A stretch of 52,579 nucleotides of DNA from a virus (Duplodnaviria; Heunggongvirae; Uroviricota; Caudoviricetes): IMG/VR virus record IMGVR_UViG_2684622554_000006, one strand, 5' to 3'. The notes under the pieces were generated by a model that had not been told where the DNA came from, did not search any database, and saw only the letters and a program-made list of their open reading frames with translations. Of the stretch, positions 30,104 through 52,579 are shown piece by piece (the first letter of the stretch is position 1; each line of letters begins with the position of its first letter). A program made the translations under genes and the position numbers.

Positions 30104-30158
30104 TGGCCGTTTCTGGCCTGCATGGCATGATTTGCTGCTTTTGGACGGGAGATTCAGT

Positions 30159-30761: not shown

Positions 30762-30777
30762 CCATTAGCGGTTTTTG
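30749..30777 (+). terminator. Rho-independent terminator after the invertase
   Basis: AACCGCTA-loop-TAGCGGTT followed by TTTTTG. Confidence 0.5.
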
Positions 30778-30831
30778 TGTTAAATCAGAACAGCCCTTTA
30801 ACTGAACTGGCCGCGCTGTTAAGAGATGATG

Positions 30832-31278
30832 TCACCTTATCTTTGAGCCGGACAGCATATCACTGAACGATGAGGATTGCAGGCGCTCCCGCAAATCCTC
30901 ATCACAGCGTTCAAGAGTCAGTGAAAATTCTATCTTTTTCGCCTTACCGTAGCGATCAAACTCGGAGCGGGTCGTATTCGTTTCAGTCAGGACATACATG
31001 CCGTAAATCTGCCCGACGCCATCAATCAAAGGCCAGGGTCGTCCTGTATACGCCTGCGTGGTCAGCAGCGACAGCGACACTTCGCCACCTGTAATTTCAG
31101 GATAAAGCACACCAGAAAGAACGATGCGATCATCACCTGCACCGATATACTGCCAGCTTGCTGAACGGTTAACGCGTTCATTTTTCACATGCCGCCAGCT
31201 TTTGTTTTGCTGTAACTGCTGATGCGGCAGCGTGCGCAGCTCAAAAACAAACATGCCGTAGATCATCATCATGGCCAT
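30832..31278 (-). CDS. U: Tail protein U (P2 gpU family), copy 1, C-terminus frameshifted
   Basis: 148 aa, identical to the copy-2 U (43500-43994, 164 aa) except for the last residues. Confidence 0.65.
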   Translation of the reverse strand: MAMMMIYGMFVFELRTLPHQQLQQNKSWRHVKNERVNRSASWQYIGAGDDRIVLSGVLYPEITGGEVSLSLLTTQAYTGRPWPLIDGVGQIYGMYVLTETNTTRSEFDRYGKAKKIEFSLTLERCDEDLRERLQSSSFSDMLSGSKIR

Positions 31279-31289
31279 GACTCCTCAAT

Positions 31290-32691
31290 CTTTATCGTAA
31301 AAACTGCACGCCCGGCACGGGCGCGCCGTTCCATTTCTGCCCTGACCATTTCACCGACCAGTTTCGCCAGTTCGCGGGATTCTGCGTAACAACGTTATGC
31401 AGATGAACATGAATTTCACCACCAAATCCGGAGGCAACAGGCTCCGGTTACGGGAAGTTACAGGAACTGATGCCACTGGAGATCGTATAGCCTCCGCCAC
31501 CGGCGGGAGCTGGCCGCAACAACAGGGACCAGCGCCGGAGGCAGCGGAGCCGGGACCACGGGTGTGATATTAATTGCGGGGGCAGGCTTACTGACCTGCG
31601 CAATCTTCCGCTCCTGCCACTCCCACGAACAGCAAGTGCTCGGGCAGGTTTTTAAAGACAATATCGCCGGGGCCAATGCGTTTTTTCGTCTCCTCAACCA
31701 GCTTACCTGTGTTATCAGCAATTTTGCTGAGTCTGCGCAGCGTACCGGTATTGCTGTCTGTGAGCGGTTATTGTCTTTGGGGTTATCACCTCGGTGCCAT
31801 TGCCATTTTCCACAGGCTTCGGCGGATTGATTTTCGCCAGGTCCCCCTGAAGCAAGGCAACCTTGTCCTGAAGAATGGCCGCACGCTGTGCGTCTTCGAT
31901 TTTCTTGCGCGCCCTTTCCGCTTCATCCGGAAGCACACCAAGCTTTTCAAGTATCCACGCCAGCGTATCCAGCAACATTTTTGCAGGTGTCAGAACAAGT
32001 TGTAACGCACCGCCAAGAACGTTACCGAATATCTCGCCAGCACTGGTACATTTATCCAGAGTTTCCTTGCTGGACTCCATCGGAGACAGCAGCGATTTAA
32101 ACCAGTTAAACACCTGGCTGATCCCACTCCCGATTGCGTCAAAAACAGGACCAAACCGTTCAAAGGTTTCGCGCAACGGGGTCAGCCTTTCCATAATCCC
32201 GCTGAACACCCCGGCAAAAAATGCCCTGATGGGATCCCAGTATTTCCAGATGAGAACGGCAGCTCCGGCAAGCGCAGCCACGATAAGGCCGACCGGACTG
32301 AACAACGCCCCGATAGCGCCCCCCAGTAACGAAACGGAACCCGTCACCATTCCCCATAGTGCTGGCAGGAGTCTGACAGCATTCATTGAACCGGTCAGGA
32401 GGGAAAAGCCAAGACGCAGTTTTGCCAGCGGGCCAGCAAGCACACCAATAGCCAGCGACAACGAGCCAACCGTTGCAGTCATTGCCAGCAACGCACCGCC
32501 TGCTATCAGTAGCTGGCGCGTCAGTACCGGATGGGCCTGCGCCAGCGAGGTGATTTTTTCAAGCACCGCGTGAGCCACTGCGTGACAGAACGCAGCGGAC
32601 CGTCAACCAGATCACTGATGCGAATACGAAGACCTTCCCATGCGCTGTCGAGATTTTTCAGGTCCCCATCAAGATTATCGGCCATTACTTT
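31290..32691 (-). pseudogene. C-terminal part of tape-measure gene T, copy 1, truncated at the duplication junction
   Basis: Track ORFs 31458-31721 and 31715-32578 match the copy-2 T C-terminal region; the sequence switches to mid-endolysin sequence at about 32692. Confidence 0.6.
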
Positions 32692-33540
32692 GAAATCTCG
32701 GAAGTGGATTTTGGTATCACCGAAGGATTGCGCAGTCGTTATCGTCAGAAGCAGCTCGTGACCACAGGCAAGAGCCAGACCATGAACAGTCGCCATCTCA
32801 CAGGGCATGCGTGGATGTTGTGGCTTATGTCGGCAACAGGTTCATGGAATGGCGCTGTACGAAAAAAATCGCAGCAGCATTCAGACAGGCAGCCAGGAAC
32901 TGAATATTCCGGTGGAATGGGGCGGCGACTGGAAGACCTGAAAGACGGACCGATTTTCAGTTACACACGGAGCCTATCCGGCATGAAGCTCTGGCCCAGC
33001 TTGGCGTCGCTTTCCTTCTGATTACATCCATGCGTCTGTCGTGGTCGCTGGGCCGGAGAACGCCAGAAACGAAGCGCAGGCCAGCACCTGAAAAGTACGT
33101 CGACACACTGAATATCATCAGCGCCGGGTACAGGATATGCACAGGTGCTGGCTCAGCTCCGCGCGGAAAATCAGCAACGCAATCAGGACGGAGAGGTAAG
33201 ACGTGAACAGCTACGCAACGATATTGCAAAAGATGAATGCGCCCACGCTTTGCCTGACGCTCGTTTTACTGACAGGTTGCGCAGGCACGCAGAACGCGCC
33301 AGGGCCAGCGCCGTCAGTCCGGCTTATACGCAGACGCTGACATGCCGGTAACGCCTCCCCCTTCCTGACCCACCCACATGGGGAAACTCGGAATATGGGG
33401 CGACCGCCTTCTGGATGCACTGGAAACCTGTAACGCGGATAAACGGGCCATTGCTGAACTGGATAAGAGAATAGCCGAACTGACACACCAGACGGGAGTA
33501 ACACAATGACCAGTAAGAACTTTGCACTGATTACAGCCAT
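32692..33540 (+). pseudogene. Copy-2 endolysin 3' fragment and spanin region, disrupted by indels
   Basis: Track ORFs 32704-33021 and 33145-33351 carry fragments of the endolysin and Rz-like sequences. Confidence 0.55.
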
Positions 33541-35361
33541 GACACAGGCTGAACTGACTCAAAAGGTGAATGAACATCTTGCGAAAGGGTGGCATCTTCA
33601 GGGGAGACGCGGGTTGCCTACGAACCCGGCACCGTGGTATCTAATGCAGGCAATGGTGGCCGATGGCACTACAGACATCTCACCTGATTCCCCCAGCACG
33701 GCAGGTGCCGGAGTGGTATTACGTGGTGGTACTTGCTGGTCAATCCAATGCCATGTCATATGGTGAGGGAATGCGCTGCCGGATTCTTACGATGCGCCCA
33801 CCACGCATTAAGCAACTGGCCGTCGCAACACAGTGATCTCCGGTGGTAAAGCATGCGCATTTAACGACATCATTCCGGCAGACCACTGCCTGCATGATGT
33901 TCAGGATATGAGCGCACTGAATCACCGAATGCAGACCTGAGCAAAGGGCAGTATGGCTGTGTCGGACAGGGCTTGCATATTGCCAAACGCCTGTTGCTTA
34001 CATTCCACAGAATGCCGGGATTTTACTGGTTCCATGCTGTCGTGGTGGTTCGGCATTCACCAGGGCGCGGAGGGGACATTCAGCGAGTCCACAGGAGCCA
34101 GTCAGGATTCGGCTCGCTGGGGTGTGGGTAAACCTTTATATCAGGACCTGATTTTGCGCACGAAGGCCGCATTGCAGAAAACCCAAAAAACATGCTGCTG
34201 GCCGTATGCTGGATGCAGGCGAATTTGACATGAGCGCCGCTACGTACTCACAGCAACCTCCGCTGTTTACGGCATGCTGAAACAGTTTCGTGCGGACATT
34301 ACCGAGTTTAACACGCAGTGTCATGGAGGCAGAGCGGCAAGTGTGCCATGGATTTGTGGTGACACGACGTATTACTGGAAAAAACACCTACGGCACGCAG
34401 TACGACACCATTTACGGGGCGTACAAAAACAGGGAGAGCGACAACGTTTTCTTTGTGCGTTCCTGACCGATGGTAGTGGCAACAATACCTCCACCAACGA
34501 CCAACGGAAGATCGGATGCTGCAAGTGAGGGATATTACGGTTCGGCATCCCGAACGAACAAAAACTGGGTATCATCAAATCGCCAGACGCATTTCAGCTC
34601 ATGGGCGCGTCGTGGCATTATTCCCGATCGTATGGCAACCGCTATTCTGAACGTAGCCGGTCGCACTTAGCCTTCATCAGTGGTAAGGCACCGGAAATCA
34701 AACCCTCGCCCGGCGGCGACACGCATCGGGGCCGTCTGAAGATGCATCCGTACGCACAATCTCCCTGTTGCGACAGCGGAGATGCTGCTGCGCAGGGCTG
34801 GAGCATTAAGAATGGCGGAATTCAGTTGTCAGAGGGTGTATTTAAGATCACCAAGCAGAGCAATAAAGCCTGGTCCTGACGCGCGCCGGTGGATGACGCA
34901 GTCTCCTGCTGACACGGGGTGGCAGACTGAGCTGTAAGTTTCGACTGTCAGGCGCACTGACCAACAATCAGTTCGGTCTGGGAATTTATCTGTATACCGA
35001 TGTAGCGTTACCTGACGTCGTGGCGATGACCGGGACTGGTAACCCGTTCCTGATGTCGTTCTTCACCCAGACCACAGACGGCAAACTGAATCTGATGCAT
35101 CACAAGAAAGCAGGAAACACAAAGTTGGGCGAGTTCGGGAATTACAGTAACGACTGGCAGACGCTGGAGCTGGTGTTCACCGCCGGCAGTGCCACGGTTA
35201 CTCCGAAACTGAATGGAGTGGCTGGCCCGGCATTCCAGGTCATAAAAGACAGTCTGACACTGGGGCTGAATGCGCTGACGTTAACTGATATCACTAAAAA
35301 TGCCGCGTACGGCGTCGATATCGGCAGCCTGGTGCTGGAAATCAATAATCCCGCAGCATAA
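33506..35361 (+). pseudogene. Copy-2 DUF1737-SGNH esterase, multiple frameshifts
   Basis: Fragments in track ORFs 33506-33766, 33953-34228, 34470-34670, 34601-34879 and 35020-35361 are collinear with the copy-1 esterase. Confidence 0.6.
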
Positions 35362-35384
35362 GGAAGAGCAGGAGAGCAAAACAG

Positions 35385-35851
35385 ATGCTTAAGACAAACA
35401 GTCTGCGAGAGTCCATGCTTCATGGGTGTCGGTGGTGCCAGGCTAATCCGAGAAATTCACCATTTTCGTGGAGAGCGGCAACATTGAAACGACCGGAGAA
35501 GCGCCCTCGTTTGTTTACCGCTATCAGATGGTGATGTTTGTCATGGATTACGCCGGAGAGCTGGACGACCTCACGCTGCCGCTGCTGGCGTGGTTATCCG
35601 AAAATCAGCCACAGTTGTTGCTCAATCCGGAGCGTAATCAGGACATCAAATTTTCTGCCGTTATCAATGACGATGACAGCGCCGATCTCCTGTTTACGCT
35701 CCCCCTGCGGGAACGCGTTCGCATCACGCGCAACAGTCAGGGCACACCGCAGGCAGAACACCTGCCGGAGCCAAAACCCCGTCTGCCTTCTTCCGAAGGC
35801 GACTGGTCGCATGTATTCCAGGATGTGACGTGGGGTGAAAGCGATGGATAA
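35385..35851 (+). pseudogene. Copy-2 tail completion protein R (frameshift near the 5' end; intact C-terminus)
   Basis: Track ORF 35468-35851 ends ...SEGDWSHVFQDVTWGESDG. Confidence 0.55.
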
Positions 35852-35854
35852 GGC

Positions 35855-38814
35855 ATTCACCCGCGTGGATGAAACCTTGAGGCTATCCGCGACAGCTGAA
35901 TCAGCAGGCCATCAATAACATCGCCAGAAAGCTGGCACAGGATTTACGTCGCGCCCAGCAGGCACGTATCCGGTCACAAAAAGCGCCGGACGGGACCGAA
36001 TGGACACCACGCAGACGCCGCGTAACCCGGATACAGGAGCGCATTCGCTTTATCTGGAATAACGAAGCACGCACGCTGAAAAACTGGCATCACGACACAG
36101 GGAAATACGGGCGAACCATTACCGGGTGGGATGAGGATAAAAACAATATCCGCACGTTTTACCGGGATGACATCGACCGTTTTCTGGAAATACGCACCCG
36201 GCGCATCAACCAGGACAGCACAAAGCGCGTCCCATGTTCGTAAAACTGCGCACCGCCCGCTACCTGAAAGCCCGTGCAGATGCCTCCGGTGTGACGGTGG
36301 GTTACAGCGGCGTGGCGCACGTATTGCACGCGTTCATCAGTTCGGTGAGCGCGATCAGGTTGCGCGGGCATTTTCACCGATTACCCGGTACGTGAGCTGT
36401 TGGGTATCAGCCAGGCAGATGAGCGCCTGATTTATAACACGGTGCTGGGCCGGATTGCGGAGGCTGTACGGTGAGCGCAGAACTCATGCGACTGCTGAGC
36501 AACATCATCCGCACCGGGATCATCTCTGAAGTTGATGAGAAGTCCTGGCGCGTGCGCGTTCGCAGCGGCGAACTGGAAACAGGCTGGTTGCGCTGGAACA
36601 CCACGCGCGCGGGAGCCTTCAATGTGTGGCTGCGCCATCACCAGGCGAACAGGTGGTAATTGCCTGCATTGGCGGCAACCCGGAAACCGCCATGATAATT
36701 GGCAGCCTGTGGAGTGATGCCAGTCCGGCCCCGGCAAAAGCCTGAAAGAAATCGTGGTCAGCGCGCCGGATGGCGCGGTGTTCCGCTACGACGCAGACGC
36801 TGGCGCACTGAGCGCCAGCGGCATGAAAACAGCCACCCTGCAGGCATCCGTCAGCGTGACACTGGATACGCCCGTCGTGGAATGCACAAACCTTCTGAGA
36901 ACGGCGACGCTTGACGTCACAAAAGAGGGAAAGATGAGCGGCAATATCACGCACAGCGGCGGCAATTTCACCTCAAACGGCATTACCGTGCATACGCATA
37001 AGCACGGTGGCGTTAAAGGTGGCAGCGATTCGACAGGAGGCCGCAGTGACAACCCGCTACACAGGAATGAACCCGGACGGGACGGGAAACCTGAACGATA
37101 TGGAGCACCTGAAACAGTCAGTCAGGGACATCCTGATCACCCCGCTGGCAAGCCGGGTTATGCGACGGGAATATGGCAGCCTTGTGCCTGATTTGATTGA
37201 CGAACCCATGAATAACACCACGCGTCTGCAATGCATGAGTGCTGCCGTGATTGCGCTGACACGATGGGAACCCCGCATTGCCCTGGACGCCATCGACGTT
37301 GTCTGGAAGGCAGGAGGCCGCGCCGGGGTGACGCTGTCGGGCACTGTCATGCAGACCATGCAGAATGTTGAATTAACCATCACGCTGAGAGAGTAAATCA
37401 TGCCTGCTGTTGATCTTTCCAGTTACCGGAACCGCCATCATCGCGGAGCCTGATTTTGAGGCAATTCTGGCTGACACAAAGGCCATGATGATTGCGTCCT
37501 ATCCTGCCGAACAGCGTGAAGCCGTCTCCGCGCGCTGGAGCTGGAATCAGAACCCCTGAACGTTATCGCTCAAACCATGTCGTTTTCGTGAAATGCTGTT
37601 ACGCCAGCGGGTTAACGAGGGCGCACGCGCCTGCATGTTAAGCACGGTTCAGGGACAAACCTGGACAACCTCGCGGCAATATGAACACAAAGCGCCTGGT
37701 TATCACTCCGGCAACGGATACCACCGACGCGGTGATGGAGAGCGACACCTCGCTGAGACTGCGGGCGCAGCGGGCGTATGACGGCCTGAGTGTTGCTGGC
37801 CCGTCAGGTGCATACGAGTATTTTGCACGCAGCGCCAGCGGTCTGGTGCGTGATGCGCGGGCCATCAGCCCGTCTCCGGCCTGTGTGACGGTTTCCATTC
37901 TGTCCACTGAAGGCGACGGCACAGCAACGGAGGCGTTGCTTAATACCGTTCGCGCCGTTCTGAATGCAGAGGATACCCGCCCGGTGGCCGACCGACTGAC
38001 CGTACAGAGCGCCAGCATCGTGACATGGCGGCTGAATGCAAAACTGTACTTTTACCCCGGCCCGGAATCCGAACCTATTCTGGCTGCGGCTGAATCGTCG
38101 TTCAGGAAGTGGCTGGCTGAGCAGGGGCTTATTGGTCAGGACGTGGCGTTGTCAGCCATTGCTGCCGCACTTCATGTGCACGGCGTGCAACGCGTGGAGA
38201 TAATCGAACCCACACAGAATATGGCCATCAGCGACATACAGGCGGCGCGCTGTGAGTCATTCACCATCAGCGAAGGTGGGCGTAATGAGTAATTCACTGT
38301 TACCGCCATCAGCCAGCAATTTCATGCGTTGCGCCGAAGCTGTCGGAGCGCGCATTACAGACATCCCGGTAGACCTCAACACGCTGTGGTCACCGGACAC
38401 CTGCCCGGTGCATCTGCTGCCTTATCTCGCCTGGGCATTTTCCGTTGACCGCTGGGATCGCAACTGGCCGGAAGAGACAAAGCGACAGGTGATTCGTGAT
38501 GCATGGCTGATACACCGACACAAAGGGACCATCAGCGCACTGCGCCGGGCCATTGAGCCGCTGGGATACCTCATTCGCGTGTCTGAGTGGTGGGAGTTCG
38601 GCGGAGAACCGGGAACATTTACCGTTGAAGTCGGCACGCTGGACAGTGGCGTGACGGAGGAAATGTATCTGGAAATGGAGCGGTTGATTGCTGATGCCCG
38701 CCCGGTCAGCCGCCACATGACAGGGCTGAATATCATTCAGGAGATTCAGGGAGATATTTCGCGGCGGCAGCAACTTACGACGGCGAAGTCATTACCATTT
38801 ATCCGGACGATTAA
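35855..38814 (+). pseudogene. Copy-2 S-V-W-J-I block, several frameshifts
   Basis: Track ORFs 36471-36659, 36754-37191, 37007-37396, 37681-38292 and 38252-38836 are collinear with the copy-1 S, V, W, J and I genes. Confidence 0.55.
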
Positions 38815-38816
38815 GC

Positions 38817-40793
38817 ATGAGTACCACAACACGTAAATTTAAAACCGTTATCACCGATACGGGTGCCAAAAAATTAGCTCAGGCAGCCGCGCCAGATGGT
38901 AAGCCTGTCCGCCTGACTCATATGGCCGTGGGCGACGGTGGCGGCACGTTGCCACACCAGACAGTAAGCAGACCCGTCTGGTGCATGAGGTGTGGCGACA
39001 TACTGTTAATCGCGTCATCCTGGACGCAACACATCAGAACCGCATTATTGCGGAGCTGGTTATTCCTCCTGAAACGGGCGGATTCTGGATCCGGGAAATT
39101 GGTGTATTTGATGAGCACGGCGATTTAATCGCGGTGGCAATACTGCCGAAAGTTACAAGCCAGCCGTTGCCGAAGGGTCCGGTCGTGCACAAACATTTCG
39201 CACCATTCTGACCGTATCCAGCACTGCCACCGTGGTGCTTACCGTGGATAACACCATGGTGATGGCCACAGTGGATTACGTGGATGACAAACTGAAAGAG
39301 CATGAACAGTCACGACGTCACCCGGACGCCTCGCTGACCGCAAAAGGCTTTGTTCAACTCAGTAGCGCCACTAACAGCGTGTCTGAAACGCAGGCTGCAA
39401 CGCCGAAAGCAGTAAAGGCCGCGTATGACCTTGCTAACGGTAAATATACTGCGCAGGATGCCAGCACGACGCGAAAAGGCCTTGTCCAGCTCAGTAGCGC
39501 CACCAACAGCACGTCTGAAACGCAGGCTGCAACGCCGAAAGCAGTAAAGGCCGCGTATGACCTTGCTAACGCAAAATATACCGCTCAGGACGCCACGACG
39601 GCACAAAAAGGGATAGTCCAGCTCAGTAGTGCCACCAACAGCACGTCTGAAACACTGGCCGCGACATCGAAAGCTGTTAAGGCGGTAATGGATGAAACGA
39701 ACAAGAAAGCGCCCTTAAATAGTCCTGCACTGACCGGAACGCCAACAACACCAACTGCGCGACAGGGAACGAATAATACCCAAATCGCAAGCACGGCTTT
39801 CGTTATGGCTGCGATTGCCGCCCTTGTAGATTCGTCACCTGATGCACTGAACACGCTGAACGAGCTGGCTGCGGCGCTGGGCAACGACCCGAATTTTGCG
39901 ACCACCATGACTAACGCGCTTGCGGGTAAGCAACCGAAAGATGCCACCCTGACGGCGCTGGCCGGACTTACTACTGCGGCAGGCAAGTTTCCGTATTTTA
40001 CGGGAATGATGTCGCCAGCCTGGCAACCCTGACAAAAGTCGGGCGGGATATTCTTGCGAAATCGACCGTTGCTGCCGTTATCGAATACCTCGGTTTACGA
40101 GAACTCGGCACAAGCGGGGAGAAAATACCGTTACTCAGTACAGCGAATACTGGACAATCGACAAACATTCAGCGGTGGCCTTTCTGGGGAACTGTCCGGC
40201 AATGCCGCTACTGCACAAAGCTGAAAACAGCACGAAAAATTGCTGAGTTGGTTTTGATGGTTCTAGCGATATTTCAATTAGTGCAAAAATGTCAATGCAT
40301 TTGCACTCCGACAAACAGGTAATACTGTTAATGGTGATACATCCGTTGGATGGAATTGGGATAGTGGTGCATATAACGCCATGATTGGTGGTGCATCTGC
40401 ATTAATTCTTCACTTTAATATAAATGCTGGTAGCTGTCCTGCCGTACAATTCCGTGTGAATTATAAAAATGGTGGCATTTCCTACAGGTCGGCTCGTGAT
40501 GGTTATGGTTTGAATTAGGTTGGTCAGATTTCTATACCACGACACGAAAACCTTCAGCGGGAGATGTTGGTGCATATACGCGGACAGAATGTAACTCAAG
40601 GTTTATTACAGGTATTCGCCTTGGCGGTCTGTCATCTGTTCAGACATGGAATGGTCCCGGCTGGTCTGACAGGTCAGGTTATGTCGTTACGGGTTCAGTT
40701 AACGGAAACCGTGATGAATTAATTGATACAACACAGGCAAGGCCAATTCAGTATTGCATTAATGGGACGTGGTATAACGCGGGGAGTATTTAA
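38817..40793 (+). pseudogene. Copy-2 tail fibre H (frameshifted), including left gix-like site at about 40078-40103
   Basis: Track ORFs 38817-39128 and 39232-40032; copy 2 reads through the position of the copy-1 premature stop ([25 protein letters not shown]...). Confidence 0.55.
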
Positions 40794-40795
40794 CG

Positions 40796-41327
40796 ATGAT
40801 GCACTTAAAAAACATTACTGCTGGCAACCCTAAAACAAAAGAGCAATACCAGCTAACAAAGCAATTTAACATCAAATGGCTTTATTCAGCTGATGGAAAA
40901 AACTGGTATGAGGAACAAAAGAATTTCCAGCCAGACACTTTGAAAATGGTCTATGACCATAACGGCGTTATTATTTGTATTGAAAAGGATGTTTCAGCAA
41001 TTAATCCGGAAGGCGCAAGCGTCGTTGAATTACCTGATATTACAGCAAATCGCCGGGCTGATATTTCGGGGAAATGGATGTTCAAAGATGGCGTAGTGGT
41101 AAAGCGAACTTATACCGAGGAAGAGCAGAGGCAACAAGCGGAAAATGAAAAGCAGAGCCTGTTGCAACTTGTCAGGGATAAAACTCAGCTATGGGACTCA
41201 CAGCTACGGCTGGGCATCATTTCCGACGAGAATAAACAAAAATTAACCGAGTGGATGCTCTATGCGCAGAAAGTCGAATCCACAGACACTCCAGCCTGCC
41301 AGTAACATTTCCCGAACAACCTGAATG
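40796..41327 (+). CDS. Copy-2 tail fibre assembly chaperone (Tfa); frame intact for 169 aa, C-terminal few residues shifted
   Basis: Track ORF 40796-41305. Confidence 0.6.
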
Positions 41328-41354
41328 AGACAAGGCCCGATAACGGCCTTAATT

Positions 41355-42793
41355 TTATTCAGGCTTTTGTGGCCATTCAGGATTTGCCGTATCCACACGG
41401 TTGACCAGAACACTGTAGCGTTCCATGCTTCAGTCGTGTGCGTTCTCGTCTGTTGCATATTCAGCCTGACAGCGCGTTCCAGCGGCTGGATGACTGATTC
41501 AGTTCGGAAAGCAATGCGGCCTTTTGTGATTCGGCCTGTTGTTGCTGTTCGTCAGCCGTATAAATCCGTTTAACCACAGCTCCGTCTTAAACATCCACTT
41601 ACCGGAATCATCGGTCCGACGATTGGCGTTATATCGGAACCTCGACGACGCTAAAACCTTCGGATTAAGCGTGGAGGCATCTCTGGTGATGGCGACAATA
41701 ATATTATTTTCATCGTAAACAATCTTTATGGTGTCTGGCTGAAAGTTTTTCACTTCCTCATACCAGTTTTTTCCGTCCTCAGAGTAAAGCCAGATAACTC
41801 CGTGTTTCTTTGTTAACTCATACTGTTCAGTGTTTTAGCATTACCCGCTTTTATGTTCTTTAAGTGCATCATATTAAACGCTCGCTACATTATACCAGGT
41901 GCATTTATATACTTTTGAACGGGTCTGTAATAAACACCCGCTATATTATCGGCAGAGTTAGACCTGTATCCTGAACATTAATACAGACAATACATGACCT
42001 GAAGGGCACTGGAAATTCCATGTTCGCCAGTTGTTCACTCCATAATATTGCTGTGAACCAAGTCGAACATCTTTCACATAACGGGAATCAAAGTTACCGT
42101 AATCCGAGGGATTAACACGCCCGTAATATTTATGGTCTTATTACTTTGAATGCTTCCGGGAACAAAGCGCATAACATGGACGTAATTAGCATAAACATCC
42201 AGATTACCATCGCCATTTTGTTTAAAGCCCGTGTCATTATCACCAATACAATCGAATTACGCCAAGAGCACTGGATGTTCGATACCAGTGCACCATTCAG
42301 TTGACCACCAGATAACGGCAGTGCACCAACATCTCCTGCTGAAGGTTTTCTGGTGGTGGTGTAAAATTCGGACAGTCGGCTTCAAAACCATAACCATCAC
42401 GGGCTGAACGATAAAAATACCGCCATTTTTATAATTAATCCGAAACTGAGCTGCAGGACAACTTCCGTCTCCATATAAAAATGAATAATTAACGTTGATG
42501 CACCACCAATATTTGCGTTATAGGCTCCGCTACTCCAGTTCCATCCAACTGCTTTATCATTCGCAACGGTGCTTCCTGTTTTCCTAAGGCAAACGCACAA
42601 CATGACTTGCTTTTAATGTGATATCGGAGGAACCATCAAAAGCCACATTGCTTATTTTCCTGCAGTTTTTAATTTTGCAGCTGTAGAAGCATTGCCGGAT
42701 AGTTCACCAGAAAGGCCACCGCTGAATGTTTGTCGATTAGTCCAGGTATTCGCTGTACTGAGTAACGGTATTTTCTCCCCGCTTGTGCCGAGT
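41355..42793 (-). pseudogene. Copy-2 Tfa' and alternative fibre cassette (frameshifted), up to the right gix-like site at about 42794-42819
   Basis: Collinear with 28623-30103 of copy 1; only short track ORFs remain. Confidence 0.5.
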
Positions 42794-42872
42794 TCTCGTA
42801 AACCGAGGTTTTAAATAATGGCCGTTTCTGGCCTGCATGGCATGATTTGCGCTTTTGGACGGGAGATTCAGT

Positions 42873-43471
42873 GTGCTGATTGGCTATGTAAGGGTATCAA
42901 CAAATGACCAGAATACAGACCTGCAACGAAACGCTCTTGTTTGTGCAGGATGTGAACAAATATTTGAAGATAAATTAAGCGGGACAAAGACAGACCGACC
43001 GGGATTAAAACGCGCTTTAAAGCGCCTTCAAAAAGGTGACACGCTGGTTGTCTGGAAACTGGATCGCCTCGGGCGAAGCATGAAACATCTGATTTCTCTC
43101 GTCGGGGAACTACGGGAGCGAGGGATTAATTTTCGCAGTCTGACCGACAGCATAGACACATCTTCTCCAATGGGGCGTTTTTTCTTCCACGTGATGGGTG
43201 CCCTGGCTGAAATGGAACGTGAATTAATTGTTGAACGTACACTGGCCGGCTGGCGGCAGCGCGCGCAAGGGGGCGCACAGGCGGACGTCGACCGAAGCTG
43301 ACAAAAGAACAGCATGAGCAAATAGCAAGGCTAATCAAAAACGGGCACGACAGAAAACAACTGGCAATAATTTACGGCATTGGCACATCGACGATTTATC
43401 GTTATCACCCTGTAGGCGATATACAGACTGAAGAAACAACCGGGCAGACTCAGGAAAATGAAAACCGCTAA
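42873..43471 (+). pseudogene. Copy-2 Pin-family invertase (frameshift at about 43250)
   Basis: Track ORF 42855-43301 carries the catalytic N-terminal 140 aa; C-terminal HTH is in another frame; stop at 43469-43471. Confidence 0.6.
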
Positions 43472-43499
43472 TCTGACCATTAGCGGTTTTTGTGTTAAA

Positions 43500-43994
43500 T
43501 CAGAACAGCCCTTTAACTGAACTGGCCGCGCTGTTAAGAGATGATGTCACCTTATCTTTGAAGCCGGACAGCATATCACTGAACGATGAGGATTGCAGGC
43601 GCTCCCGCAAATCCTCATCACAGCGTTCAAGAGTCAGTGAAAATTCTATCTTTTTCGCCTTACCGTAGCGATCAAACTCGGAGCGGGTCGTATTCGTTTC
43701 AGTCAGGACATACATGCCGTAAATCTGCCCGACGCCATCAATCAAAGGCCAGGGTCGTCCTGTATACGCCTGCGTGGTCAGCAGCGACAGCGACACTTCG
43801 CCACCTGTAATTTCAGGATAAAGCACACCAGAAAGAACGATGCGATCATCACCTGCACCGATATACTGCCAGCTTGCTGAACGGTTAACGCGTTCATTTT
43901 TCACATGCCGCCAGCTTTTGTTTTGCTGTAACTGCTGATGCGGCAGCGTGCGCAGCTCAAAAACAAACATGCCGTAGATCATCATCATGGCCAT
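43500..43994 (-). CDS. U: Tail protein U (P2 gpU family), copy 2, apparently intact (164 aa)
   Basis: ORF whose start overlaps the T stop. Confidence 0.75.
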   Translation of the reverse strand: MAMMMIYGMFVFELRTLPHQQLQQNKSWRHVKNERVNRSASWQYIGAGDDRIVLSGVLYPEITGGEVSLSLLTTQAYTGRPWPLIDGVGQIYGMYVLTETNTTRSEFDRYGKAKKIEFSLTLERCDEDLRERLQSSSFSDMLSGFKDKVTSSLNSAASSVKGLF

Positions 43995-46814
43995 GACTCC
44001 TCAATCTTTATCGTAAAAACTGCCACGCCCGGCACGGGCGCGCCGTTCCATTTCTGCCCTGACCATTTCACCGACCAGTTTCGCCAGTTCGCGGGATTCT
44101 GCGTAACAACGTTATGCAGATGAACATGAATTTCACCACCAAATCCGGAGGCAACAGGCTCCCGGTTACGGGAAGTTACAGGAACTGATGCCACTGGAGA
44201 TCGTATAGCCTCCGCCACCGGGCGGGAGCTGGCCGCAACAACAGGGACCAGCGCCGGAGGCAGCGGAGCCGGGACCACGGGTGTGATATTAATTGCGGGG
44301 GCAGGCTTACTGACCTGCGCAATCTTCCGCTCCTGCCACTCCCCACGAACAGCAAGTGCTCGGGGCAGGTTTTTAAAGACAATATCGCCGGGGCCAATGC
44401 GTTTTTTCGTCTCCTCAACCAGCTTACCTGTGTTATCAGCAATTTTGCTGAGTCTGCGCAGCGTACCGGTATTGCTGTCTGTGAGCGGTTTATTGTCTTT
44501 GGGGTTATCACCTCCGGTGCCATTGCCATTTTCCACAGGCTTCGGCGGATTGATTTTCGCCAGGTCCCCCTGAAGCAAGGCAACCTTGTCCTGAAGAATG
44601 GCCGCACGCTGTGCGTCTTCGATTTTCTTGCGCGCCCTTTCCGCTTCATCCGGAAGCACACCAAGCTTTTCAAGTATCCACGCCAGCGTATCCAGCAACA
44701 TTTTTGCAGGTGTCAGAACAAGTTGTAACGCACCGCCAAGAACGTTACCGAATATCTCGCCAGCACTGGTACATTTATCCAGAGTTTCCTTGCTGGACTC
44801 CATCGGAGACAGCAGCGATTTAAACCAGTTAAACACCTGGCTGATCCCACTCCCGATTGCGTCAAAAACAGGACCAAACCGTTCAAAGGTTTCGCGCAAC
44901 GGGGTCAGCCTTTCCATAATCCCGCTGAACACCCCGGCAAAAAATGCCCTGATGGGATCCCAGTATTTCCAGATGAGAACGGCAGCTCCGGCAAGCGCAG
45001 CCACGATAAGGCCGACCGGACTGAACAACGCCCCGATAGCGCCCCCAGTAACGAAACGGAACCCGTCACCATTCCCCATAGTGCTGGCAGGAGTCTGACA
45101 GCATTCATTGAACCGGTCAGGAGGGAAAAGCCAAGACGCAGTTTTGCCAGCGGGCCAGCAAGCACACCAATAGCCAGCGACAACGAGCCAACCGTTGCAG
45201 TCATTGCCAGCAACGCACCGCCTGCTATCAGTAGCTGGCGCGTCAGTACCGGATGGGCCTGCGCCAGCGAGGTGATTTTTTCAAGCACCCGCGTGAGCCA
45301 CTGCGTGACAGAACGCAGCGGACCGTCAACCAGATCACTGATGCGAATACGAAGACCTTCCCATGCGCTGTCGAGATTTTTCAGGTCCCCATCAAGATTA
45401 TCGGCCATTACTTTTGCAACGCGATCGGCCTCTCCCTTGCCCCCTGCAATTCTCTGGTCAGTTTTTGCAGCTCTCCTGAACCAGCCGCCGCAACAAGCGT
45501 CTGCAAACCAACGAACGCCTCTTCTCCGGCGATGTCCTTGAAGAAGGAAACCTGGTCCACCTGTCCGTATTTTTGTGTCGCCTTATAGAGATCAAGCAGC
45601 ACATCCTCCATCGGGCGCATTTTGCCTCTGGCGTCAGCAACTGACACCCCCAGCTCTTTCAGCGCATCAGCCGCAGCTTTTGGCGGTGATGCAAGGCGGG
45701 ACAGACTTGCGCGCATGGCCGTACCAGCATCGCTTCCACGAAGACCATTATTGGCAAGCATCCCGGCCATGGCTGCCGCTTCTTCAAGACTGATACCAAG
45801 TTTTGCGGCAACCGGACCGGTATACTTCATGGTTTCGCCCAGCGCGCGTAAATCAGTATTGGTCCGGGTGAATGCCGCTGTCAGCGTATCGCCAACCCGG
45901 TCCATTTGATCGGCTGTCAGGTTGAACTGTGTGAGGATATTGGAGCCTATATCAGCCGTCTCGCCGAGTTCGACGCCACCTGCCAGCGCCATATTAAGAA
46001 CACCGGGCAATGCGGCCTGAATGGCCTGCGGAGTAAAACCAGCCATTGCCAGAAAGCTCTGCCCACTGGCGGCATCACTCGCAGTAAACTGTGTTTCAGA
46101 GCCAAGTTTTAACGCCTGCTCACGCAGCGCCTTAAACTGCGGGCTGTTTTTGTCGATTCGCGTCAGCGCCTGAACGCGGGACATCTCTTTGCCGAACCCG
46201 ATCGCGGGCTGCAAAAAACGCCCGGCAGCATAGCCGCCCGCCGCTGCCGCACCAATTGCCAGCGCACCACCTGTTTTCAGTTTTCCCGCGGTTTCCTGCG
46301 CGCGCGAATACCGCTCACGAGCCTGCGTTACACGCGCAAGCGCCTGCCGTTCGCGTTCAAGCTGGTTGTTGTATTGTTCGGTGCGTCTGATGGCCTGCTG
46401 GATGGTGTTATCGCTGCCTGTCAGGGAAATGCCGTGGCGTTTCAGTTCTCCGCCAAGCTCCCGCATTTTCTGAATTTCCCGTGTGCGCGATTCATTCAGG
46501 CGTTCAAGCCGGGTGCTTAACTGCTGCATCAGCTTTTGTTGTTTTTCGCTGAGCACTGTACCCGTGCGTTGTAACTGATTAAGGGCGTTAAGCTGGCGTC
46601 GTGCTTTCACGATACCCGCATCCGCTTTACTGACAGCGTCGCGGGCGCGCTCAAATGAACGCGCCTGACGCTCGAGATTTTTGATCGCCCCCTGCGTTCG
46701 CTGAATGGAGTCACCAAACTGCCCCATCAGGCGGCGGGCGTTTTCGGCAGGCCGGGTCAGCCTGTCAACGGCGCTGAAAGCGACCCGGATGTCAAGAGTC
46801 TTCATTATCTGCAT
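43985..46814 (-). CDS. T: Tail tape-measure protein T; split as given by an in-frame TAA at 45408-45410 and a frameshift near 45075
   Basis: N-terminal tape-measure core (...GETMKYTGPVAAKLGISLEEAAAMAGMLANNGLRG...) in 45408-46841; continues as MADNLDGDLKNLDSAWEG...; one extra A in the A4 run at 45411-45414 would restore a continuous ...QKVMADNLDG... frame. Start codon uncertain (46805, 46814 or a GTG at 46841). Confidence 0.75.
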
Positions 46815-47330
46815 TCCCGCTGCGAAGTGCCGCCCGCTCACGCCAGCTAACCACTTCGCCGGGCGTCATCATGAAGATTTCGGCGGGCGACCAGTTGAAA
46901 ATGGCGGCAATATCCGCCACCAGATCTTCGATGTGCTCAAAGCACACCAGGGTGATTACGCTGCCGTCTCCTGCACGCTCTTCGCGCCAGAGTCTGGCTC
47001 GCTCATAAAATTTACAGCCACAGCGCACAACTGAATAAAATCGCGTGACGACATTTTTTTAATCATCACTTCATCCAGTCGTGGCGAGGTCACGCGAGGC
47101 AACAGCGTGAACATGGTATCCGCTTTCAGATTCAGCACATCAGACAGCGACAGACCACGCAGGGATCCCGCCTGCTCAATAGCCCCGGTGATCTCCACAT
47201 ATGTGATTTTTTCGGCACCACGCTCAATTGGCCGGGAAAGTTTTACACCACGTTCGACAGCCATATCCTCACCTGACGTCACATCATCCGCTACGGTGTT
47301 ATTCCGGGTTTCAGTATCGATATCTTTCAT
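46792..47330 (-). CDS. E: Tail assembly chaperone pair E / E+E' (programmed-frameshift gene upstream of the tape measure)
   Basis: E ORF 46956-47330 (AAGGAG RBS; LSRPIERG...LRGLSLSDVLNL...LLPRVTSP pattern) and overlapping frame 46792-47028, linked at an A7 slippery run at about 47042-47048; exact frame relationship cannot be resolved given the homopolymer uncertainty. Confidence 0.65.
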
Positions 47331-47385
47331 CAGTTGTCTCCTTTTCAGTCAGAGGCGACGCACTGCGCCGCCTGCATATTACTTA

Positions 47386-47897
47386 TCAGCCAAGCCCAAG
47401 CGCGGAACGAATGCGGTCAGGCACAATGTCCTTGCCGTCCTTCCGGTAGATGTGGTTCAACAGGTCGATTTCCCACAGCGGGCGATCGTTAACGCTCAGC
47501 TTGTAGTAGGTGTTTTTGACAGCGTAAGTGTGTGATGTGGCTTCGCCCTGTTTGGCCTCCCCCATATCAATTTCCGTCACACGCCCGCGCATCTCGATTT
47601 CATACAGATCGCTTTCTGCATCGGTGTAATATTCACCCGCAAAACGCAGCAGCGTGCCGTCAATCGTGCCGCCATACTTAAGGAACAGTGCACGAACAGC
47701 TCCCCCATGACAAAGCTCGCATCAAGCGCGGAGTCGTCCAGACCGAGATCAATACTTACTGCTCCCATCATGCCACCACCACGATAGCTGTCGGTTTTGC
47801 GCGTCAGTTTGGGCGGCGTGACGGATGTCACTTTACCCACTTCGTTTTCACCATCCACAAACAACGTAAAAAAGCGAAGATGTTTTGGTACAGCCAT
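47386..47897 (-). CDS. FII: Tail tube protein (P2 gpFII family), frameshifted as given (about 47600-47700)
   Basis: N-terminal 106 aa (track ORF 47577-47897, ...VTSVTPPKLTRKTDSYRGGGMMGAVSIDLGLDD...) and C-terminal 68 aa (47386-47592, MRGRVTEIDMGEAKQGE...) both match gpFII but lie in different frames. Confidence 0.7.
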
Positions 47898-49081
47898 CAG
47901 GCACCTCCCAGCACCGCAAATGCGGGACCAAAGAATTCATCAGTAAACGTCTGGTAAAGCTCCATGTCTTCCAGCGGGGGAACGGGCGTATATTTGTAGC
48001 GAATACGCACACGCCCCTGACGTAAATCCGTGGTGCCGTTATCCACCACGTCATACCAGCACTCCGCGCCAATCAGTTTCCCGGCAGTAACCAGCGAATC
48101 CAATTTTGCCCTGATGGCACTGATAACATCCTTCACGTTCGCAGGCGTCAGTGGACTGTCGATGGTTTCAAACTGCGCTTCCGCAATTGAATCAGCCAGC
48201 ACCTGTGCGGTTCGGGTATACACCTCAAAGATGTAGGCGTTCGTTTCCGGTGTGCGGTTGCCCCAGAAGCGGAACCCGTTACGACGAATAATGGTCGTGA
48301 TTTCTTTGTTGTTGAGGCTGTTGGCATCACTGTCTTCGGCCTGTAACGACCAGAACACATGCCTCGACATCCCCAGCACATTTTTAACCGGAACGTTGGA
48401 CAGCGATTTGTGCCAGCCCTGCTCATGGTCAATGTACGCACGAAGGCCGCACGCATAAGCAGGCGCGGGGAACGTTTCGTTTTTGCCACTTTTCGGGTTG
48501 TAGGCGATGAAGTCAGGCCATAAGAGCATCACCTCACGTTCGTTGAATTTCTGGCGGTAGGTAATCGCCTCAGCCATCGTGTTACAACCATGACATGTGG
48601 CATACACAAACGCGCGCAGTTTACCCGCAATCACGCACAGGGATTTTGTCACCGCCTCCGTGTCCAGCTCCGGCGCGGCCAGAATACGCGGACGGTATCC
48701 GATGCTTTCATCCTGCTCTGCAACAAGCAGCGCATACATCCCCGTATAGCTGCCGTCAGATTCAGAACCACCGATAACCAGTTGATCCTGCGTCCTACCG
48801 CCTTCTTCTTTGTGTTCAGCCACGCGAACGACGATCACTTTTGTGCTCACCTGGTCTGCGATAGCCTTAAGCGCACGATAAAGCGTCCCCGTAGTCCCGC
48901 ATTTTCCCAGCACGTCATTGACGCGGGTCAGCAGTGTGGGCTTGTTCAGCGGGAACAGCTCCGCATCCGCATCATCCGCCGTTGCCACGATACCGATAAC
49001 GCTGGAATCAACATCATTAATCGCTGTTACCAGGTCGGTACTTTCCGTGACACGGGCACCATGAAAACGAGTTTCACTCAT
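47897..49081 (-). CDS. FI: Contractile tail sheath protein (P2 gpFI family)
   Basis: 394-aa intact ORF; stop overlaps the FII start (ATGA). Confidence 0.9.
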   Translation of the reverse strand: MSETRFHGARVTESTDLVTAINDVDSSVIGIVATADDADAELFPLNKPTLLTRVNDVLGKCGTTGTLYRALKAIADQVSTKVIVVRVAEHKEEGGRTQDQLVIGGSESDGSYTGMYALLVAEQDESIGYRPRILAAPELDTEAVTKSLCVIAGKLRAFVYATCHGCNTMAEAITYRQKFNEREVMLLWPDFIAYNPKSGKNETFPAPAYACGLRAYIDHEQGWHKSLSNVPVKNVLGMSRHVFWSLQAEDSDANSLNNKEITTIIRRNGFRFWGNRTPETNAYIFEVYTRTAQVLADSIAEAQFETIDSPLTPANVKDVISAIRAKLDSLVTAGKLIGAECWYDVVDNGTTDLRQGRVRIRYKYTPVPPLEDMELYQTFTDEFFGPAFAVLGGA

Positions 49082-49238
49082 AGCTTCAGCCCCTTGTATC
49101 CGTTAAATGATTCGGCAACAATCATCACCCACCACGCGCGTAATCTCACCCCTGCGCCGTTCTCCCGCCACGGCGACAACAAAAAGCAGTAACCCCCTCC
49201 GCACGCACATGCGACCATGCCGCACAGGGAGGGAGCAG

Positions 49239-50348
49239 ATGACCGACACCACCATGCAATTGCTCAGTCAGGGCACAGACCCCGTGAAAATGCCGGATTT
49301 TGATATTCTCGCGGAGGGTAAAACGCTGTCAGGCGTGGCAGAGCGCCTGATGAGCCTGTCACTGACCGACAACCGGGGATTTGAGGCGGACCAGCTCACC
49401 ATCACGCTGGATGATGCGGATGGTCAGTTGCAGCTACCGCCACGGGGCGCGCGCCTGACGGTTCTCATTGGCTGGAAAGGAGAACCGCTGACAGAAAAAG
49501 GCACTTACATTGTTGATGAAATCGCTCACGAAGGACCGCCGGACAGGCTGACTGTTTCAGCCAGAAGCGCAGATTTTCGGGATGAATTTAACGTTAAACG
49601 TGAGGTGTCCTGGCATGATGTGACCGTTGAGCGTGTGGTATCCGCCATCGCTCATCGGTATGGTCTGAAACCGCAAATCAGCGAAATGCTGATGGATATC
49701 GAAATCGACCACGCCGACCAGACCGAAGAAAGCGACATGTCCTTCCTTACGCGCATGGCGGAAATGCTGGGCGCAATCACCACGGTAAAAAGCGGTAATC
49801 TGTTATTCATCATGCCCGGCGGTGGCGTGAACGCACAGGGCCAGCCGTTGCCATCGTTTGCCATCACACGCAGCAGCGGCGATCGCCATCAGTTCCGCAT
49901 TGCTGACCGCGAAGCGTATACGGGGGTACGCGCTTACTGGCTTGATCTTAATTACGGGAAAAAGAAAAAAGTCAGCGTGAAACGCCGTAAACCGCCAAAA
50001 CCCAAAAAGGAGAAAAGCAGCAGCCGCGAAGGTGATTATATGGAAGGCGCGGAAGGCAATGTGTTTGTGTTACGCAAGACTTATCAGAACGAGCAGGCAG
50101 CAAGACGCGCAGCGGCGGCAAAGTGGCAGCAACTACAACGCGGAGCCGCATCATTCTCCATCACGCTGGCGCGTGGACGTGCAGAACTCTACCCCGAAAT
50201 GCATGGCACGGTAACAGGATTTAAAAGCGAGATTGATAATCAGGACTGGATCATTGCAAAAGCCGAGCACACCATTGATAACAGCGGTTTTACCACGCAG
50301 CTTGAGCTTGAGGCAAAAATCCCGGAATGGATAGCGGAAACAGAGTGA
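49239..50348 (+). CDS. D: Tail protein D (late control gene D family)
   Basis: ATG at 49239 with AGGGAGGG RBS, inside track ORF 49107-50348; N-terminal LSLTDNRGFEADQLTITLDDADGQLQLP matches the gpD family pattern. Confidence 0.85.
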   Translation: MTDTTMQLLSQGTDPVKMPDFDILAEGKTLSGVAERLMSLSLTDNRGFEADQLTITLDDADGQLQLPPRGARLTVLIGWKGEPLTEKGTYIVDEIAHEGPPDRLTVSARSADFRDEFNVKREVSWHDVTVERVVSAIAHRYGLKPQISEMLMDIEIDHADQTEESDMSFLTRMAEMLGAITTVKSGNLLFIMPGGGVNAQGQPLPSFAITRSSGDRHQFRIADREAYTGVRAYWLDLNYGKKKKVSVKRRKPPKPKKEKSSSREGDYMEGAEGNVFVLRKTYQNEQAARRAAAAKWQQLQRGAASFSITLARGRAELYPEMHGTVTGFKSEIDNQDWIIAKAEHTIDNSGFTTQLELEAKIPEWIAETE

Positions 50349-50388
50349 GCAACTTAGAATAGGCAGCACCACGTTAAGGGAGGTCGCT

Positions 50389-50649
50389 ATGTTCCGTTGT
50401 CCGCTTTGTGGCGCATCTGCCCGTATCCGCACCAGTCGTCCGGAAAATGATTCAAACACCGTGCGGCAAAAGTATTACCAGTGTAACAATCTGGAATGCG
50501 GCGTATGCTTCTCAACACTGGAAGCTTTCCATAAATTCACATCAAAACACGCCTCCGGCGTTCACTCTTCAGAAGGTATCCCGTGGCATGATCTGCCAGC
50601 TTCACACAGGGGAAACAATCAGATGAGTTTGCCTTTATCTCAGAATTAA
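50389..50649 (+). CDS. ogr: Ogr/Delta-family zinc-finger late-gene transcription activator
   Basis: MFRCPLCGASARIRTSR...YYQCNNLECGVCFSTLE shows the Cys4 C-x2-C...C-x4-C arrangement and N-terminus of Ogr; AAGGGAGG RBS. Confidence 0.85.
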   Translation: MFRCPLCGASARIRTSRPENDSNTVRQKYYQCNNLECGVCFSTLEAFHKFTSKHASGVHSSEGIPWHDLPASHRGNNQMSLPLSQN

Positions 50650-50737
50650 CAGGCAGAATTGCCGGAGTAACAAAAAAGCGATAGATTACGTGCGGGTGCC
50701 TTTCGGCTGATGGTCGGAGGGAATACCCGAAGGCCAG

Positions 50738-51286: not shown

Positions 51287-52579
<1,293 letters not shown>

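Follow-up and report, generated by a model that had tools for sequence, protein, structure and literature searches.

Gene content of the tail block

The window analysed here, i.e., the whole stretch of 52,579 nt, contained a block of contractile-tail genes on the minus strand (43500–49081), comprising U, T, E', E, FII and FI. This composition and orientation, which an initial annotation of the DNA had proposed, was borne out by Pfam matches, open reading frames and mapping from reference genomes (Table 1). It was also shown that the block converges on the fibre genes and pin, and diverges from D and ogr across a spacer of 157 bp, just as had been described. The range originally given for the arrangement, 30832–50348, was too wide; it includes the block proper, but the part between 30832 and 43499 lies outside the inverted genes, and holds a partial second U with the 3' end of T (30785–32691), followed by a second copy of the lysis, baseplate, fibre and pin genes.

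All of the domains expected of a Peduoviridae contractile tail (PF04984/PF17482, PF04985, PF10145, PF06995, PF05954 and PF04606) were recovered above their curated cut-offs. The exception among the tail genes was gpE, which had no Pfam match; its homologue in P2 and 186 was identified by tblastn at 34–35% identity, between the FII and T homologues of those phages. U, FI and D were intact. In other genes one-base indels were observed relative to references that were otherwise identical: T was divided into three ORFs by indels at 44092, 45041 and 45433, the two halves of FII matched positions 1–63 and 101–165 of PF04985, and the second copy of pin carried a one-base deletion at 43247 when compared with the intact reference gene of 600 nt. 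If real, the indels in T and FII would make this prophage tail-defective. This copy of pin was the final gene ahead of the inverted block, situated between the fibre genes and U. The hairpin located between the 3' ends of pin and U is a candidate terminator for a leftward FI-U operon. The longest ORF for D opens at 49107; P88, however, is annotated from the equivalent of 49239, which has GGAGG 5–9 nt upstream, and this start was adopted in Table 1.

Table 1. Features of the tail block, its flanking spacer, the invertible fibre segments and the tandem duplication (positions in the window).
Feature	Position	Strand	Evidence and remarks
Duplication, copy 1	19905-32691		Self-blastn; 3' part of endolysin to 3' part of T
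Pin-invertible tail-fibre segment, copy 1	27341-30107		Inverted alignment to E. coli 4/1-1
Crossover cores, copy 1	27352-27363 and 30085-30096		AAACCNNGGTTT-type
pin, copy 1	30159-30756		Reference mapping; 4 indels
U, copy 1	30785-31272		Reference mapping; 1 indel
T 3' fragment, copy 1	31285-32691		Reference mapping
Duplication, copy 2	32692-45414		Self-blastn; right end inside T
Pin-invertible tail-fibre segment, copy 2	40074-42822		
Crossover cores, copy 2	40085-40096 and 42800-42811		AAACCNNGGTTT-type
pin-type DNA invertase (copy 2)	42873-43471	+	Mapped from E. coli 4/1-1 ('recombinase family protein' there, 'DNA invertase' in P88)
Hairpin, terminator-like	43461-43490		12-bp stem, then T run; between 3' ends of pin and U
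gpU, tail protein	43500-43994	-	164 aa, intact; PF06995, E 5.5e-39
gpT, tape measure	44001-46805	-	PF10145, E 4e-57
E' (GpE family), frameshift extension of tail chaperone	46792-46947	-	Mapped from reference 'GpE family phage tail protein'
gpE, tail chaperone	46956-47330	-	Mapped from intact reference prophage
gpFII, tail tube	47386-47897	-	PF04985; two halves, one-base deletion at 47701
gpFI, tail sheath	47897-49081	-	394 aa, intact; PF04984, PF22671, PF17482; reference 100% identical
FI-D spacer, divergent	49082-49238		157 bp; proposed bidirectional late-promoter region
Predicted -10 of FI promoter, GATGAT	49121-49126	-	Leftward; predicted start near 49114
Candidate Ogr binding site (TCT-N12-ACA)	49161-49178		TCTCCCGCCACGGCGACA, then ACAAAAAG; centre 49169.5; conservation in aligned spacers
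Predicted -10 of D promoter, GACCAT	49213-49218	+	Rightward; predicted start near 49225
gpD, baseplate hub / late control protein	49239-50348	+	369 aa, intact; PF05954
ogr/delta-type zinc-finger late activator	50389-50649	+	86 aa; PF04606, E 5e-14

Distribution of the arrangement

The initial annotation had held that the inverted layout would be ordinary if reference P2-like genomes shared it, and a synteny comparison found that they do. The records of P88 (Xuanwuvirus), 500465-2 (Gemsvirus) and Serratia KSP20 annotate these genes in the same order and on the same strands, and the identical arrangement was recovered by tblastn from Klebsiella Kp4861-1 (Reipivirus), which is unannotated; the layout is therefore ordinary. 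A search of 5426 complete E. coli genomes recovered the FI-D junction from 1356 of them, or about one quarter, where coverage of at least 80% was required for a genome to be counted, and positions 48700–49700 of the window were 100% identical in E. coli genomes among the best matches listed. Where genome loci were informative, i.e., contained both FI and D, the arrangement was found in every case (42/42), with D being 65–99% identical; these loci came from approximately 30 species of Enterobacterales, in genera including Salmonella, Serratia, Edwardsiella, Erwinia, Pantoea, Enterobacter, Klebsiella and Brenneria. The same was true of 80 of 80 loci from IMG/VR.

As in the P88-like clade, U-T-E-FII-FI in the window were opposed to both V-W-J-I and D-ogr, FI and D were head-to-head across a spacer of the length seen in that clade (approximately 157–200 bp), and DNA identity to P88 and its relatives was 93–96% across the tail region. 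The FI-D junction itself was 98.5% identical to that of P88, in which the spacer is also 157 bp. Hence, the window belongs to the P88-like branch of the P2 family (Peduoviridae), as a prophage integrated next to serS, and its gene order is already known from deposited records of P88-type phages. The paper describing P88 (PMC5285337) is silent on gene order, the arrangement being documented by the deposited annotations instead. That this layout yields working virions is indicated by P88, which is lytic and can be induced, and by the spontaneously active PhiSM (PMC6456863). The suggestion that the inversion is a lineage-specific rearrangement therefore holds insofar as the layout is shared by a lineage; however, that lineage is large and old, and so the arrangement is an ordinary one.

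Alternative explanations of the inversion

The initial annotation had suggested that the inversion might be related to the invertase. Pin directly adjoins the FI-U block, and inverts the neighbouring fibre segment, which in the window was oriented opposite to that of E. coli 4/1-1; Pin, or some other site-specific recombinase, might therefore have flipped the block, in a recent and strain-specific event or as a switchable element. However, a search of the window for crossover cores of the gix/pix type (AAACCNNGGTTT) located four, one at each end of either fibre-segment copy, and no others, no inverted repeats were found flanking 43500–49081, and the orientation of FI-U was constant in all of the relatives checked, which numbered approximately 120. 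With no cores at its ends and a single orientation throughout, the block does not resemble segments inverted by the Din family (Gin/Cin/Pin/Hin). Moreover, in most relatives with this layout no pin homologue was detected, one example being a Salmonella prophage in which D was 99% identical. A recombinase-mediated flip is thus very improbable, and the proposed link to the invertase was not upheld.

Misassembly of this sequence, which had also been raised, draws some credence from the poor-quality sequence, and the duplication of suspicious appearance, that lie close by in the window. Nonetheless, the pin-U (43472–43499) and FI-D (49082–49238) junctions both fall where the window sequence is clean, and their colinearity extends to an independent complete genome, to isolated phages and to those 1356 E. 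coli genomes that contain the FI-D junction. Positions 42322–52579 aligned colinearly, as one piece, to the single-copy prophage of E. coli 4/1-1; since both junctions lie within this alignment, misassembly of the inversion can be set aside, the residual chance of such an error being negligible. Similarly, a proposed connection with the duplication failed, because the duplication ends (19905, 32691/32692 and 45414) lie in the endolysin gene and in T, and not at the boundaries of the inversion. It is concluded with high confidence that the FI-U inversion is fixed, functional and clade-wide, and that it is neither recent, nor an invertase flip, nor a misassembly; the promoter mechanism attached to it below is putative.

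The tandem duplication

The odd feature near the block is the tandem duplication of 12.8 kb, rather than the inversion. Comparison of the two copies identified 128 gap positions and approximately eight substitutions in 12.8 kb, such that they differed almost exclusively by one-base indels. Relative to the reference there were approximately 150 deletions in homopolymer contexts, with about zero substitutions per kb; nearly all of the one-base homopolymer deletions fell within 27341–42822, and they were numerous in the left 7.4 kb of copy 2 (lysis genes, esterase, R, S, V, W, J, I and H). Deletion density reached 23 per kb immediately to the right of 32691/32692, where the copies join, compared with 0–1 per kb in the flanks, and this pattern of deletion in homopolymers is indicative of an inner copy supported by very few reads. 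The copies join bluntly, without microhomology, and two genes are cut. This junction was absent from 5426 complete E. coli genomes, phage records and IMG/VR (0 matches by exact search), and no record was found by exact look-up of the chimeric ORF that crosses it. Judging from the sequence, the duplication probably arose as an artefact of long-read assembly, and it is unrelated to the inversion.

The duplication could otherwise be real, with a poor consensus having arisen from a mixed population (e.g., through Pin acting across four sites) or from failed polishing of repeats. The limits of the zone of frequent deletions do coincide exactly with the outermost crossover sites, the first in copy 1 (27341) and the last in copy 2 (42822), and Pin-driven heterogeneity between these two sites could account for the zone. 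This explanation is nevertheless rather unlikely, given the scarcity of substitutions between the copies, the peak of homopolymer deletions beside the junction and a blunt junction that is missing from all collections searched. A phage replication concatemer was also considered and rejected, since the unit of 12.8 kb begins midway through the endolysin gene, stops midway through T and does not correspond to a genome length. The probable artefact, which comprises a false repeat of 12.8 kb and homopolymer deletions at approximately 1%, breaks many genes and could mislead annotation into treating the prophage as defective.

A candidate late promoter in the FI-D spacer

Late promoters in P2 are Ogr-dependent and have the consensus TGT-N12-ACA (PMC3931495). 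A strict search for this consensus found no site within the FI-D spacer, because the left half-site here is TCT; it was comparison with the P-O spacer of the window and with relatives that exposed the candidate site in Table 1. The initial annotation had pointed to this spacer as a place for Ogr sites, and sequence comparison provided one candidate. An exact match to GTTCT-N12-ACAAC also occurs in the P-O spacer, at 15847. Forty-four distinct spacers were aligned, i.e., that of the window plus 43 others, which are related by descent, so that the following counts are not independent. The motif T[GC]T-N12-ACA was present at the equivalent place in 41 of these; the left half-site was TGT in 17 spacers, TCT in 24 and CCT in three relatives. 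The most conserved block of the alignment was GACAACAA.

A -10-like hexamer, defined by A at position 2 and T at position 6 (background of 4% per position), was observed exactly 55.5 nt leftward of the site centre in 43 of the 44 related spacers and exactly 55.5 nt rightward in 40, with 39 having both. This constancy was unlike the distance between the site and the FI start codon, which differed between loci. A generic sigma-70 scan returned promoter-like matches that were no commoner than in shuffled sequence, and none inside the spacer, as would be expected for activator-dependent promoters. No repeats were found within the spacer. The loose motif T[GC]T-N12-ACAA was not enriched across the window (10 observed against 11.3 expected). 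This lack of enrichment counts against the promoter model, as do the departure of the left half-site from the canonical TGT (TCT in the window, CCT in three relatives) and the D leader, which measured from the predicted start would be short, at approximately 14 nt.

In the P88-like clade FI-FII-E/E'-T-U constitute an operon of their own, directed leftward, tail-to-tail with the fibre genes and pin and head-to-head with D-ogr. The spacing suggests that a single Ogr site would drive divergent promoters for FI and D; Ogr bound at TCT-N12-ACA would activate this operon leftward, from near 49114, and D rightward, from near 49225, simultaneously. Activation in two directions from one site is modelled on the site between pP and pO in P2, where one activator site lies midway between divergent late operons and its centre is 55.5 nt from starts mapped at 3016 and 3127. 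The site in the spacer is comparable in that its dyad-like half-sites are 12 nt apart and 55.5 nt separates its centre from each predicted start; however, the half-site is TCT in the window and TGT in P2 pP/pO, the starts are mapped in P2 and predicted in the window, and while P2 pP/pO serves head genes (P-Q and O-N-M...), the region in the window would serve the tail genes FI and D. It seems moderately likely, from these sequence comparisons, that an inversion split the F operon of P88-like phages and brought the pF activator site beside an orphaned D, and that the site is bidirectional, making it a second promoter in the style of pP/pO. No description of such a bidirectional late promoter for tail genes was found for P88-like phages in the literature consulted. 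The promoter model shows how expression of D could stay coupled to that of the other tail genes once D had been separated from the operon.

Comparison with known systems

The window was closest to Escherichia phage P88 (NC_026014), 500465-2, Citrobacter PhiSM and the ST131-type prophage that lies between serS and dmsA in E. coli 4/1-1 (NZ_CP023844). These share V-W-J-I-H-G (+), an invertible fibre segment, pin (+), U-T-E'-E-FII-FI (-), the spacer of 157 bp, D (+), ogr (+) and hok with the window, at a DNA identity of 93–100%. The window differed from them in its extra tandem copy of 12.8 kb and in approximately 150 one-base indels. Serratia KSP20 (AB452988) and Klebsiella Kp4861-1 were more distant, with proteins 41–75% identical to those of the window; here too gpT, gpE, gpFII and gpFI were on one strand with gpD divergent, an arrangement that tblastn showed for both phages and that the KSP20 record also annotates. 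In the stretches examined of either phage, pin was not detected.

P2 (NC_001895) and 186 (NC_001317) present the canonical F operon, FI-FII-E-E'-T-U-D, which is driven by pF (pJ in 186). Their annotations agreed with the expectation that FI-FII-E-T-U-D-ogr are co-directional with V-W-J-I-H-G. In both, U overlaps D, which makes D the last gene of the operon. Seven tail genes and ogr/B are shared with the window, and the internal order from FI to U is unchanged; the proteins are 33–62% identical, and D approximately 50%. However, while FI-U in P2 and 186 are co-directional with V-G and with D, in the window FI-U are inverted, on the minus strand, and D is detached, on the plus strand, with a start region of its own. 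Relative to P2 and 186, therefore, the layout is equivalent to one inversion of exactly FI-U plus its late promoter, with D and ogr unmoved. P2 and 186 are the wrong synteny reference for the P88-like group, which are very common enterobacterial prophages, and thus the orientation of P88-like tail genes should be reported neither as a rearrangement nor as an error of assembly.

Arrangement of the tail genes

The window contains a P2-family prophage, which extends from the integrase gene (1-1008, minus strand) through ogr and hok and adjoins serS (51287-52579). The initial annotation had placed the tail genes FI to U on the minus strand, divergent from D and ogr, and this was borne out by Pfam matches and by coordinates mapped from an intact reference prophage (see table); E was without a Pfam match. 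The colinear order it gave for P2 and 186 agreed with both reference records, in which FI-FII-E-E'-T-U-D-ogr are co-directional with V-W-J-I-H-G. In the window, the 5' ends of FI and D are head-to-head across a spacer of 157 bp (49082-49238).

Features of the tail region and FI-D spacer
Feature	Position	Strand	Basis	Remark
pin	42873-43471	+	mapped from intact reference prophage	
U	43500-43994	-	Pfam	
T (tape measure)	44001-46805	-	Pfam	three pieces
E'	46792-46947	-	mapped from intact reference prophage	
E	46956-47330	-	mapped from intact reference prophage	
FII (tube)	47386-47897	-	Pfam	two pieces
FI (sheath)	47897-49081	-	Pfam	
Predicted leftward -10, GATGAT	49126 to 49121	-		predicted start near 49114
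Candidate activator site	49161-49178		spacer alignment	centre 49169.5
Predicted rightward -10, GACCAT	49213-49218	+		predicted start near 49225
D	49239-50348	+	Pfam	
ogr	50389-50649	+	Pfam	

Between the lysis genes and R, a cargo gene (20738-22614, plus strand; copy at 33506-35361) encodes a protein with SASA (sialate O-acetylesterase-like) and DUF6645 domains; in P88 the corresponding interval is no more than a short gap. In the early region (8983-10261, plus strand), two genes are annotated in the identical reference prophage, one for ParM-type plasmid segregation and one for partition/stability, a hint that this prophage might also be maintained like a plasmid. The small terminase gene M (17897-18697, plus strand) is an open 266-aa reading frame in the window, whereas RefSeq calls it a pseudogene with an internal stop in the prophage of E. 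coli 4/1-1 (NZ_CP023844). RefSeq truncates D of that prophage (20796-21649 of the locus) to 267 aa and adds a small pseudogene, yet the 369-aa frame is open throughout; the divergent layout seems to have led the annotation astray.

Distribution of the arrangement

Megablast with the window's right half identified Escherichia phages P88 (Xuanwuvirus), 500465-2 (Gemsvirus), 503458 and 520873, and Citrobacter PhiSM, at 93-96% identity. In the deposited annotation of both P88 and 500465-2, as in the window, the invertase gene reads on the plus strand, U, T, E', E, FII and FI come next on the minus strand, and D is again on the plus strand; in P88, FI and D are likewise 157 bp apart. One kilobase over the FI-D junction (48700-49700) was present in 1356 of 5426 complete E. 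coli genomes at coverage of at least 80%, with 100% identity in the best-listed genomes. Strain 4/1-1 is one such genome; its single-copy prophage lies between serS and dmsA and shares this gene order.

Searching one-genome-per-species contigs with the D protein produced 47 loci, 42 of which contain both FI and D; every one of these (D 65-99% identical) has V-W-J-I on the plus, U-T-E-FII-FI on the minus and D-ogr on the plus strand. Approximately 30 host species are represented, with members of Salmonella, Serratia, Edwardsiella, Symbiopectobacterium, Erwinia, Pantoea, Enterobacter, Kosakonia, Klebsiella, Raoultella, Brenneria, Pectobacterium and Yokenella among them. Two contigs filed as Gram-positive, L007 (Vagococcus sp. 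WN89Y) and L048 (a Planococcaceae MAG), contained this enterobacterial prophage (D identity 98-99%), most likely through contamination of those assemblies. Among IMG/VR relatives, the 80 best (D identity 62-100%) all had the layout, as did Klebsiella phage Kp4861-1 (Reipivirus) and Serratia phage KSP20; the KSP20 record annotates a gpD-like gene on the strand opposite to its gpT-, gpE-, gpFII- and gpFI-like genes. The tail genes of P2 and 186, whose D is approximately 50% identical to the window's, are colinear. P88 can be induced and is lytic, and PhiSM shows spontaneous activity (PMC6456863); therefore, the layout is functional. Rearranged tail operons are on record for other P2-like phages, such as Smp131 (PMC3931495). 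The arrangement is an old and widespread lineage trait, publicly annotated and already known.

Origin of the inversion

The initial annotation had proposed either a lineage-specific rearrangement, possibly linked to the invertase or to the duplication, or a misassembly. This was partly right: the arrangement is a lineage trait, albeit an old and widespread one. Misassembly was ruled out, because 42322-52579 aligned with strain 4/1-1 as a single colinear piece spanning both the pin-U and FI-D junctions, and therefore it cannot explain the inversion. Neither suggested link held. The pin gene was detected in just 17 of the 80 viral loci and a handful of genome loci, and was missing from a Salmonella prophage with D 99% identical; the orientation of FI-U was constant across genome and viral loci, with or without pin. 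Cores of Gin/Cin/Pin-type crossover sites (AAACCNNGGTTT, with up to one mismatch allowed) occurred only at 27352, 30085, 40085 and 42800, these being the ends of the two fibre-segment copies, and no inverted repeats were found flanking 43500-49081. Pin does act on the fibre segment, which is inverted relative to strain 4/1-1 in both copies (27341-30107 and 40074-42822). This flip places a different H C-terminus and assembly protein in the expressed position. As for the duplication, it ends inside the endolysin and T genes, distant from the inversion boundaries.

The tandem duplication

Self-alignment showed that 19905-32691 is repeated head-to-tail at 32692-45414 (12.8 kb, 98.9% identity), the copies differing by 128 gap positions and only about 8 substitutions. 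The stretch 30785-32691 represents a second U and T 3' end, and 32692-43471 repeats the region with the lysis genes, esterase, R-S-V-W-J-I-H, fibre segment and pin, which explains the left part of the range that the initial annotation had given to the inversion. The junction (32691/32692) is blunt, without microhomology, and cuts inside the endolysin and T genes; it was not found in 5426 E. coli genomes, phage records or IMG/VR, nor was the chimeric ORF across it on record by exact look-up.

Measured against strain 4/1-1, which differs by approximately zero substitutions per kb once the fibre inverted repeats are set aside, one-base indels numbered 3 in the 27 kb of 1-27000, about 150 in 27341-42822 (with a maximum of 23 per kb immediately to the right of the junction) and 5 in 43000-52579. 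Nearly all in the middle stretch were deletions beside an identical base, and many genes there look like pseudogenes because of these deletions alone; its bounds are the outermost invertase crossover sites, beyond which the flanks are clean. The identical substitution content, the homopolymer deletions and the concentration of errors on the inner copy all indicate a long-read consensus that was very poorly supported. The duplication is probably an assembly artefact, possibly arising from contig ends that overlapped and were left untrimmed, or from a chimeric read, with the fibre segment's two orientations adding to the problem; that it is real seems rather unlikely.

A candidate bidirectional promoter

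Alignment of 44 distinct FI-D spacers identified GACAACAA as the most conserved block, with TGT (17 spacers) or TCT (24) located 12 nt upstream of its ACA. TGT-N12-ACA is the activator motif of P2 late promoters (PMC3931495). Defining a -10-like hexamer by A at position 2 and T at position 6 (background frequency 4% per position), one that places the predicted start exactly 55.5 nt from the site centre occurred leftward in 43 spacers, rightward in 40 and in both directions in 39, while the TGT/TCT motif itself occurred in 41, although the 44 share ancestry and these counts are not independent. The distance from site to FI start codon differs between loci, and the core spacing is therefore under constraint.

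The extended motif GTTCT-N12-ACAAC at 49159-49180 recurs identically in the window's P-O spacer (15847-15868); the loose motif was not enriched across the whole window. A third exact match lies inside T on its coding strand (44722-44743, minus; duplicate at 31999-32020), and could be either chance or an internal late promoter.

Relative to P2, a single inversion that took in FI-U and its promoter would have severed D from the operon. The conserved site, the paired hexamers and the geometry of P2 pP/pO lead us to propose that a single candidate Ogr site may drive FI-U leftward and D rightward; this bidirectional late-promoter model is the only modestly new element here. At P2 pP/pO there is likewise one annotated activator site (TGT at 3063, CCA at 3078, centre 3071.5), and the mapped starts at 3016 and 3127 each lie 55.5 nt from its centre, the same geometry as predicted for the window's spacer.
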